From IMG/VR virus record IMGVR_UViG_3300014682_000025: a DNA stretch of 41,278 bases; one strand, given 5' to 3'. The stretch comes from a virus (Duplodnaviria; Heunggongvirae; Uroviricota; Caudoviricetes). The notes below the pieces were generated by a model. It was given only the letters and a program-made list of their open reading frames with translations, ran no database searches and was not told where the DNA came from. Of the stretch, positions 2,304 to 40,545 are shown in pieces (position 1 is the stretch's first letter; every line of letters starts with the position of its first letter). A program made the position numbers and the translations under genes.

Positions 2304-2532
2304 TATAATAAACTTACTTTTTTATCATTTTTCCACTTTAACAACATTTTGCTCCACTTTTCCACGACCAAACAACTTGAAATCTGGTTAAAATAACACG
2401 CAACACTATTCTTCTTCCTTGAGTCCGCCCGGAACTCGAAAAACAAACCGAGTTAAAGCCATTTTTCACAAAATCGATTTTGGGTCTCACCAAAATTACG
2501 GGGTTGCATACGCATTCGTTTATTTTCGAACG

Positions 2533-2572
2533 TGTACATACAAATATGTACAAAAATAATCAAAATTATTTT
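2533..2572. promoter_or_regulatory. Two adjacent perfect 20-bp dyads (TGTACATA-CAAA-TATGTACA and AAAATAAT-CAAA-ATTATTTT) about 50 bp upstream of pin
   Basis: Read directly from sequence; function unknown. Confidence 0.3.
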
Positions 2573-2619
2573 CTGAGATGCATTATGATATGAACACCAA
2601 TTTCGTATAGAATCTCACT

Positions 2620-3210
2620 ATGTCTCGAATTTTTGCTTACTGTCGGATATCAACGCTGGATCAGACCACCGAAAATCAACGCCGGGAAATCGAAAGTGCA
2701 GGTTTTAAAATCAAACCTCAGCAAATAATCGAAGAACACATTAGCGGCTCAGCAGCAACCAGTGAGCGTCCTGGTTTTAACCGGTTGCTTGCTCGCCTGA
2801 AATGTGGTGATCAATTGATTGTGACAAAACTGGATCGCCTTGGTTGTAATGCAATGGATATCAGGAAAACAGTGGAACAACTGACCGAAACAGGTATCAG
2901 AGTGCATTGCTTAGCATTGGGGGGCATTGACCTGACCAGTCCAACAGGAAAAATGATGATGCAAGTAATTTCAGCAGTCGCTGAATTTGAACGAGACCTT
3001 TTACTTGAACGCACTCATTCCGGGATAGTAAGAGCCCGCGGCGCAGGGAAACGTTTTGGTCGACCACCTGTGTTAAATGAAGAACAGAAACAGGTGGTAT
3101 TCGAACGAATTAAGTCAGGTGTAAGTATAAGTGCCATTGCCCGGGAATTCAAAACCTCGCGGCAAACCATTTTAAGAGCCAAAGCAAAACTTCAGACACC
3201 TGACATATAA
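2620..3210 (+). CDS. pinQ: Serine recombinase / DNA invertase of the Gin/Hin/Pin family, 196 aa
   Basis: N-terminal resolvase catalytic domain (YCRISTLDQ, Ser11) and C-terminal HTH; sits next to tail fibre genes as in Mu, P1 and e14. Confidence 0.9.
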
Positions 3211-3307: not shown

Positions 3308-3883
3308 CTACGGCAGTGCTGGCCATTCAATATCCTGTGCAGTTGACGTATCAACACGGTTCAGCAATACCCGATACTTTTTCCATGCTTCCAGCAACGA
3401 GATTTCTTCCTCCGTTGCAATTTCCAGATCTGCAGCATCCTGAAGCGGCGCAATATGCTCACTGGCTACCTGCATCAGGTTGTTTTTTGTTTCTTCCGCC
3501 TCCCGGATCCGGAACAGTTTTTCTGCTTCCGTATCCTTCACCCAGGCTGTGCCGTTCCACTTCTGAAACTCCCCTTCCGGGGATAACCAGGTGACATTTT
3601 CCGGTAATGGGCCAAGTTCAGAAATAAATAACGCGTCGCCGGAAGCCACGTCATAGACGGTTTTACCCCGATGATCTTCAACGAGATGCCACGATGCCTC
3701 ATCACTGTTGAAAACAGCCACGAAGCCAGCCGGAATATCTGGCGGTGCAATATAGGAACTGTTTGCTGGCAGACCTGTATGAGGCGGAATATATGCGTCA
3801 CCTTCACCAATAAATTCATTAGTTCCTGCCAGCAGATTATAAATTTTTATGGTCCGTGGTTGTTCACTCATTCTGAATGCCAT
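3308..3883 (-). CDS. tfa: Tail fibre assembly protein Tfa, 191 aa
   Basis: N-terminus [24 protein letters not shown] matches lambda Tfa; start overlaps stf stop (ATGA). Confidence 0.85.
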
Positions 3884-7528: not shown

Positions 7529-10845
<3,317 letters not shown>

Positions 10846-40377: not shown

Positions 40378-40412
40378 CATTCTTTTCAAGTGATTAGTTG
40401 CGCCCATTCTTT

Positions 40413-40432
40413 TTGTTAGATCAGTCTAACAA
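40413..40432. promoter_or_regulatory. Perfect dyad TTGTTAGA-TCAG-TCTAACAA between dicA and ydfA (candidate DicA operator at the dicB-operon promoter)
   Basis: Read from sequence. Confidence 0.55.
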
Positions 40433-40545
40433 AAAACACTTGCCTCTCATGTTAGGTTATTCTAAATTACTTTCCATCAAGACACCGCACGGTGTTCTCA
40501 GCAAACAGTTCCGCTACCCCGGCGTTAAGGGGAAATGAGGTCAGC

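Follow-up and report, generated by a model that had tools for sequence, protein, structure and literature searches.

The region upstream of pinQ carries two abutting palindromes at positions 2533-2572 of the window, which is the whole stretch of 41,278 nucleotides analysed here. These 40 bp are probably the middle of a res-type array of about 103 bp (2507-2609) which, judging from the sequence, came with pinQ from a resolvase module of the Tn3 family or of plasmids. In order, the array would consist of a 26-bp site I, 14 bp of spacer, a 32-bp site II, the -10 element of pinQ and two promoter-proximal half-sites, and a few substitutions in the window allele would have produced both the perfect dyads and the CAAA spacer that they share. 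The dyads alone matter little when a familiar element explains them. However, annotation presents the pinQ and pinR genes of the Qin and Rac prophages of E. coli as DNA invertases, and they have recently been reported as such in phage defence, whereas the proteins most closely related to theirs are resolvases, of Tn3 type or from plasmids, and an eroded res that is still recognisable accompanies pinQ and pinR. From the resolvase kinship, the eroded res and the cysteine that PinQ and PinR have at a catalytic arginine position (residue 76 in PinQ), one can derive testable predictions on the DNA that PinQ binds, on the control of its gene and on its ability to cut DNA.

The dyads and their variation among related loci

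The window is a lambdoid prophage; its insertion point, ydfJ, corresponds to the Qin position in E. coli. According to the list of open reading frames, pinQ (2620-3210, plus strand) encodes a small serine recombinase of 196 amino acids. The ydfK gene (2070-2303) lies upstream of pinQ, and tfa and stf follow on the opposite strand as a single tfa-stf set. A direct repeat, CATTTTTCCAC and CACTTTTCCAC, 29 bp apart, is found at 2326-2365 in the non-coding stretch after ydfK. Ten N at 9913-9922, inside a long tail-gene open reading frame region, are either masked sequence or an assembly gap.

Dyad 1 (2533-2552) reads TGTACATA-CAAA-TATGTACA and is directly abutted by dyad 2 (2553-2572), which reads AAAATAAT-CAAA-ATTATTTT. 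Both are strand-neutral, have perfect 8-bp arms and span 20 bp, exactly as a sequence-only reading had described them; the distance from the 3' edge of dyad 2 to the start of pinQ at 2620, given there as about 50 bp, is 47 bp. The centres of the dyads are 20 bp apart, and the half-sequences of dyad 1 and dyad 2 are unrelated to each other.

The same reading proposed a comparison with shuffled sequence, and the pair proved to be rarer there than in the window. Of 2000 dinucleotide-preserving shuffles of the AT-rich stretch 1285-2619, 0.05% contained at least two dyads with 8-bp arms and a 4-bp spacer, and none contained an adjacent pair (0/2000). The pair exceeds what base composition alone yields. 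Perfect dyads with 8-bp arms occur at only nine places in the 41 kb, and most of the others are GC-rich and terminator-like. The N8-CAAA-N8 pattern, which might have been expected to recur in the prophage, has no further copy across the 41-kb window even when one arm mismatch is allowed (expected count 0.2). The sequence TGTACATA is absent from the window outside the two arms of dyad 1, and a second copy of the arms of either dyad was not found in the prophage. Two other AT-rich perfect dyads are present at 25870-25893, ACTGTAAT-N8-ATTACAGT, and at 40411-40434, TTTTGTTAGA-TCAG-TCTAACAAAA; the latter falls between genes towards the right end of the window and is a possible repressor operator.

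An RNA element was considered and rejected, as the Rfam search of the ydfK-pinQ intergenic region gave no match and the hairpins formed by the two dyads are no more stable than those of shuffled sequences (z = -1.3). Two sub-threshold Rfam matches were recorded elsewhere: IS009 at 3342-3400 on the minus strand in the tfa region (53 bits, E 9.5e-11, cut at the search boundary), and CssrB at 1531-1668 on the minus strand in the AT-rich stretch between ydfJ and ydfK (28.7 bits, E 0.002).

About half of the complete E. coli genomes carry the ydfK-pin intergenic region, at both the Rac and the Qin position, and it also occurs in 11 records of lambdoid phages, among them mEp460, Tritos and 2H10. Conservation of the dyads was assessed in 84 related loci that were fetched for the purpose. 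Dyad 1 is perfect in one of them, dyad 2 alone is perfect in 64 and neither is perfect in 19. Dyad 2 has perfect arms in 65 of the 84 loci, with CAAA or CATA as spacer. There is a T/C polymorphism at 2549, and in the majority allele the right arm of dyad 1 is TATGCACA. In alleles of the 2H10 type, dyad 2 is badly broken and reads ATAATAAG-CGAA-ATAATTTT. Compensatory base pairs that would keep the symmetry were not seen among the 84 loci. The exact 75-mer 2516-2590 was found in 223 of 2678 matching E. coli records (about 8% of the carriers). The perfection of the dyads is a property of one allele and not of the element, and the conservation in homologous prophages that the sequence-only reading had asked about is lacking.

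The polarity of the changes can be read with the E. coli plasmid homologue L113 as an outgroup. G-to-T at 2560 and G-to-A at 2562 are derived in the window lineage; the T at 2560 completes dyad 2 and the A at 2562 turns CGAA into CAAA. The spacers of dyad 1 and dyad 2 are CAGA and CGAA, respectively, in the outgroup, and many alleles have CATA in place of CAAA. Because the two CAAA spacers derive from unrelated ancestral bases, the identical architecture that was offered as evidence for a binding site is coincidental, on top of a site that was already symmetric. On the other hand, adjacent perfect dyads are improbable by composition in the shuffle test, and therefore there may be selection for symmetry in the window allele.

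The dyads could also be independent operators of some other dimeric regulator, such as YdfK, a host factor or Fur, and their perfection, their abutment with centres 20 bp apart and their rarity in shuffles are what one would expect of such operators. A single protein would, however, not read two dyads with unrelated half-sequences, and no second copy of either arm is present in the prophage. Nor is the symmetry kept up in homologous loci: a perfect dyad 1 is lacking from 83 of the 84, 19 of the 84 have a broken dyad 2, and in the 2H10 allele, which has an almost identical pin, dyad 2 is destroyed. For Fur, 2555-2573 (AATAATCAAAATTATTTTC) agrees with the 19-bp Fur-box consensus used here (GATAATGATAATCATTATC) in 14 of 19 bases, a level reached nowhere else in the window and with a P of about 0.03 in the shuffled intergenic region, but the match falls to 11 of 19 in the 2H10 allele. 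For YdfK there was no detectable match to a DNA-binding family, nor any match at all in NCBIfam. Taken together, independent operators are very unlikely.

Mosaicism is sharp at the start codon of pin when the window is compared with phage 2H10 (L001) over 2304-3210: pin differs at 2 of 591 nucleotides and the upstream region at about 10%. The chromosomal variant L114 is the reverse mosaic, with an upstream region near-identical to that of the window, including both perfect dyads, and a pin that is 10% diverged at the nucleotide level.

The res family of the PinQ relatives and a map of the array

Relatives of PinQ with 57-85% amino acid identity are found in other genera and on plasmids, and they are situated in resolvase contexts rather than invertase contexts. 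The gene on a Citrobacter plasmid (L110, 78% identity) is divergent from an annotated Tn3-family transposase gene. The relatives in Shewanella (L013), in Photorhabdus (L015) and on the E. coli plasmid pRM10386-2 (L113) are divergent from open reading frames starting with MPRRQILSSEE, as in L110, and the one in Photorhabdus is interrupted by stop codons. In Klebsiella (L111) and Erwinia amylovora (L112) the genes are on plasmids and adjoin parA. PinQ is 85% identical to the Tn3-type TnpR of L113 but only about 36-38% identical to Cin, Gin and PinE, and the phage invertases P1 Cin, D6 and HK225 are only about 36% identical to it. PinQ received no family-level name above the cut-off in NCBIfam. 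Its helix-turn-helix is nearly identical to that of the res-bearing relatives (recognition helix compared with TTRQTILRVKA), so the same half-site motif should apply.

The 125 bp upstream of the relatives' genes align essentially without gaps. They contain six half-sites of the form TGT(A/C)CGAAA (54 instances) together with TATAAT at a fixed spacing. The layout consists of a 26-bp inverted pair (site I), 14 bp of variable sequence, a 32-bp inverted pair (site II), the TATAAT and two direct copies of the motif, the last of which ends about 15 bp before the ATG. A profile built with nhmmer from nine non-coding upstream regions of the relatives only was compared with the 41-kb window, and its sole significant match is 2524-2614 (E 1.4e-7), ungapped and collinear. 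The alignment begins at 2524 and does not reach the left half of site I. The same profile matched the independent res of L113 with E 2.4e-29 and the 2H10 allele with E 1.8e-10. In L113, the plasmid homologue, res is intact and in register with the window, and the promoter-proximal 45 bp of the two are almost identical. The position and orientation of the array in the window are the same as in ten relatives. By these alignments, the 2533-2572 stretch is homologous to the res of closely related resolvases.

Half-sites in the window were scored with the family matrix, and the scores were ranked over 82540 positions. Five matches of at least 6 bits fall within 2500-2612, compared with 0.24 expected. 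The homologue of site I, the crossover site, is found at 2507-2532 on the plus strand. It has 26 bp in a 12-2-12 arrangement, CATACGCATTCG TT TATTTTCGAACG, and its register matches TGACCGAAAACG AC CGGTTTCGGACA of L113 and that of nine other relatives. The right half-site I-R (2524-2532, reverse complement CGTTCGAAA) is kept, with 7.0 bits and rank 51 of 82540. The left half-site I-L (2507-2515, CATACGCAT) is eroded to 0.5 bits, as is the centre of site I; in the 2H10 allele, I-L is CATCCGAAT with 6.8 bits. Two further repeats in this region were tried as crossover sites and rejected, as they do not match the family motif: AACTCG-N10-CGAGTT at 2432-2453 and the perfect 14-bp palindrome CAAAATCGATTTTG at 2469-2482. 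The latter overlaps ATTTTGG-N6-CCAAAAT (2477-2496) just 5' of the res homologue, outside the family res.

The spacer between sites I and II (2533-2546, plus strand) is 14 bp long, TGTACATACAAATA, and holds the left arm of dyad 1 and the CAAA. It is 14 bp in all relatives and variable in sequence, for example TTGTTAAACAGATA in L113 and CTACTCTGCAAATC in L013, and TGTACATAC within the spacer of the window scores just 2.0 bits as a half-site. The homologue of the accessory site II follows at 2547-2578 on the plus strand with 32 bp, TGTACAAAA-N14-TTTCTGAGA, where the relatives have TGTCCGAAA-N14-TTTCGGACA. Its left half-site II-L (2547-2555, TGTACAAAA) is good, with 11.6 bits and rank 6 of 82540, and its right half-site II-R (2570-2578, TTTCTGAGA) is degraded to 1.8 bits. 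The spacing within sites I and II (26 and 32 bp) is exactly kept, with one good and one poor half-site each in the window allele.

The two promoter-proximal half-sites are on the minus strand. IIIa (2588-2596, ATATGAACA, reverse complement TGTTCATAT) is degraded to 0.2 bits; the relatives have ATTCGTACA in these columns, and the 2H10 and L114 alleles have ATATGTACA with 6.1 bits. IIIb (2601-2609, TTTCGTATA, reverse complement TATACGAAA) scores 12.3 bits, rank 2 of 82540, and corresponds to TTTCGTACA in the relatives; IIIb is nearly invariant among the E. coli haplotypes. IIIa and IIIb have a direct orientation, 13 bp from start to start, in the relatives and in the window alike, and an inverted-pair third subsite of the gamma-delta site III type is not present in either. 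In the window allele, the scores of I-L, II-R and IIIa do not rise above those of the top 1% of random positions, and in the 2H10 allele all six half-site positions score positive.

When the dyads are laid over this map, their borders cut across the conserved half-sites. Dyad 1 (2533-2552) takes up the spacer that separates site I from site II, together with the outer TGTACA (6 nt) of II-L. Dyad 2 (2553-2572) coincides with the centre of site II and, in its outer AAA/TTT, takes in the inner ends of II-L and II-R. The comparison does not support the dyads themselves as binding units. That the region would be a protein-binding site stands in so far as it is tied to the pin promoter and is homologous to res (nhmmer E 1.4e-7), but not for the dyads as the units that are bound. 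The -10-like element TATAGAAT noted at 2606-2613 is present, but it is not the conserved -10; it overlaps IIIb and is the positional homologue of the half-site TTTCGTACA.

The putative pinQ promoter, residue 76 and the likely present role of the array

The probable -10 of the pinQ promoter, predicted from the alignment, is TATGAT at 2584-2589 on the plus strand. In these columns TATAAT is found in eight of ten non-phage relatives (L014-L017 and L110-L113), TATGAT in L013 and TATCAT in L019, and no segment is less polymorphic than this hexamer across 37 E. coli haplotypes. A weak -35-like hexamer, TCAAAA (2560-2565, plus strand), lies 18 bp 5' of the -10, within the spacer of dyad 2. It has three of six consensus matches, where the relatives have GTGAAA with four of six, and its use as a -35 is put forward tentatively. 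All relatives have TATAAT or TATGAT between site II and the proximal half-sites, so that at the sequence level the promoter is embedded in res. Two other sigma-70-like pairs in the promoter scan, TGTACA-16-AATAAT (2533-2560) and ATGATA-17-TAGAAT (2585-2613), were discarded because they are not conserved in the relatives. The poor -35 (3/6), the two other -10-like hexamers and a third subsite made of two direct half-sites count against the res model.

Residue 76 of PinQ (codon 2845-2847) is a cysteine at the position of Arg71 of Tn3 resolvase, with DRLGC in place of DRLGR. Arginine is found at this position in Tn3 and gamma-delta resolvase and Gin, as compared in PDB structures, and in all ten relatives. 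The 2H10 copy and the chromosomal variant L114 have the same cysteine, and the plasmid homologue L113 keeps the arginine. Y7, R9, S11 and R73 are present in PinQ, but the complete pocket (Y6, R8, S10, D36, R68 and R71 in Tn3 numbering) is not. In Tn3 resolvase, R71A and R71K abolish resolution, and substitution of R71 gives no resolution in vivo and a cleavage that is about 1000-fold lower (PMC2794168).

Site I would be the crossover point for resolving two directly repeated copies, which is doubtful for the present allele because its left half is eroded and PinQ carries Cys76. By analogy with Tn3 and gamma-delta, PinQ dimers on site II (at the -35 position) and on the proximal half-sites (at the -10 and the start region) would repress pinQ. 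Recombination at the pinQ res homologue is probably weak or lost, because three of the six half-sites are degraded and a cysteine occupies the Arg71 position, and at most partial binding and self-repression would be left. We infer binding by PinQ, use of the promoter and repression from the related systems, and residual PinQ binding with self-repression is the most likely present role. Pin is a plausible binding protein; for Fis and H-NS, which the sequence-only reading had named along with Pin, there were no pointers in this analysis.

Half-site erosion, Cys76 and relaxed dN/dS point to a resolution module that is in decay or being repurposed. At the extreme, the res would be dead and without useful protein binding, and the palindromes would be neutral by-products of a symmetric site II, a self-complementary TGTACA and AT-rich drift. 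Such a pure relic is unlikely, though it is the main alternative and several observations are consistent with it. Three of six half-sites are degraded, PinQ is without the catalytic arginine, dN/dS of pin is relaxed within the phage lineage (0.37 compared with 0.15-0.20 in comparisons with the plasmid homologue), the perfection of the dyads hinges on single polymorphisms, and divergence between the window and 2H10 alleles is highest in site II (7 of 32 nucleotides, 22%). II-L, I-L and the centre of site II are also among the most variable segments in the 37 E. coli haplotypes, as is the dyad region. In the same haplotypes, however, polymorphism within the intergenic region is lowest in the -10, IIIb and I-R, and II-L and IIIb are still near consensus in the window. 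Moreover, the open reading frame of pinQ is intact, with dN/dS below 1, in the active phages mEp460, 2H10 and Tritos.

Another possibility is that PinQ and PinR are domesticated Tn3-type resolvases that lost efficient catalysis through the change from Arg71 to cysteine and were kept mainly as DNA-binding proteins, with res turning into a simpler operator. We hold this to be quite unlikely. If it were true, the substitutions that perfected the dyads in the window allele would be adaptive, and the 'invertase' effect of PinQ on the P segment of e14 would be indirect, for example via PinE.

That effect has been described for overproduced PinQ, which was reported to drive inversion of the e14 P segment (PMC12529663). 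The result would argue that PinQ is catalytically active, at a different kind of site. In the same report, deletion of pinE leaves the P segment locked although pinQ and pinR are still present (PMC12529663), and a test of plasmid-borne pinQ in a pinE-deleted strain was not found in it. The effect of PinQ on e14 could be indirect because of Cys76. The ydfK-pin upstream region is not mentioned in this single functional study of PinQ, and a literature search for a site 5' of pinQ or pinR found none described.

Comparison with known recombination systems

The pinQ locus resembles the hix, gix and pix systems (Hin, Gin and PinE) in that a small serine recombinase gene is placed beside phage tail-fibre genes, and site I of the PinQ relatives is like these sites in having 26 bp, a 12-2-12 arrangement and an inner motif of the AAACC type. 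The dyads might be read as an active crossover site of the invertase type, at which Pin inverts or deletes DNA. In favour of this, annotation makes the gene a DNA invertase, the AA in the middle of each dyad is reminiscent of the asymmetric hix core, and PinQ-dependent inversion at the e14 pix sites has been reported (PMC12529663). But the dyads are 20 bp long and invertase sites are 26 bp, and the homologue of the crossover site is site I at 2507-2532, not the dyads. Furthermore, a second copy of the dyad arms, of N8-CAAA-N8 or of the res profile was not found in either orientation in the whole window. The locus differs from hix, gix and pix in having neither an inverted partner nor an invertible segment, and its one tfa-stf set leaves no alternative tail-fibre cassette. 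PinQ is also much closer to the Tn3-type TnpR (85%) than to Cin, Gin and PinE (about 36-38%). With no partner site and no invertible cassette, this candidate was ruled out, and we regard it as extremely improbable.

The res-type array that we prefer is best compared with the res of Tn3 and gamma-delta (Tn1000). In Tn3, res contains the promoter of tnpR, site III is proximal to tnpR, and binding of TnpR autoregulates and represses the gene (PMC7157771). The layout of gamma-delta res was read directly from a plasmid record (L115). Like these, the pinQ array is located directly 5' of a small serine recombinase gene with an embedded promoter, and copies of a 9-bp motif form inverted pairs of different spacing, the crossover site being farther from the gene and the accessory sites nearer to it. 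The motifs are related, since the gamma-delta sequences CGTCCGAAA and TGTCCGATA reach 12.6 and 8.4 bits when scored with the PinQ-family matrix. The geometry is different, with 26/14/32/9/9-4-9 bp in the pinQ res compared with 28/22/34/5/25 in gamma-delta, whose site III is an inverted 25-bp pair whereas the promoter-proximal pair of pinQ is direct. There is no significant sequence homology between gamma-delta res and the res of the PinQ family (E 0.16), and the two cannot be aligned. Unlike Tn3 and gamma-delta, the pinQ element is found in a lambdoid prophage without tnpA, three of its half-sites are degraded, and its recombinase has cysteine at the R71 position.

The closest counterparts are the res regions of the clade formed by L113, L110, L111 and L112, which are direct homologues of the pinQ res. 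The recombinases are 74-85% identical at the protein level, and the spacing of the six half-sites and the -10 is the same. The members of the clade have six near-consensus half-sites, the catalytic arginine and either a divergent Tn3-type tnpA or a plasmid par locus, whereas the pinQ copy is without three of the half-sites and the arginine and has ydfK and phage tail-fibre genes as its neighbours. A named transposon may correspond to this res subfamily; Tn5403 is a candidate. The element upstream of pinQ is in this comparison of a known kind: an eroded member of a resolvase res family, carried in a lambdoid prophage.
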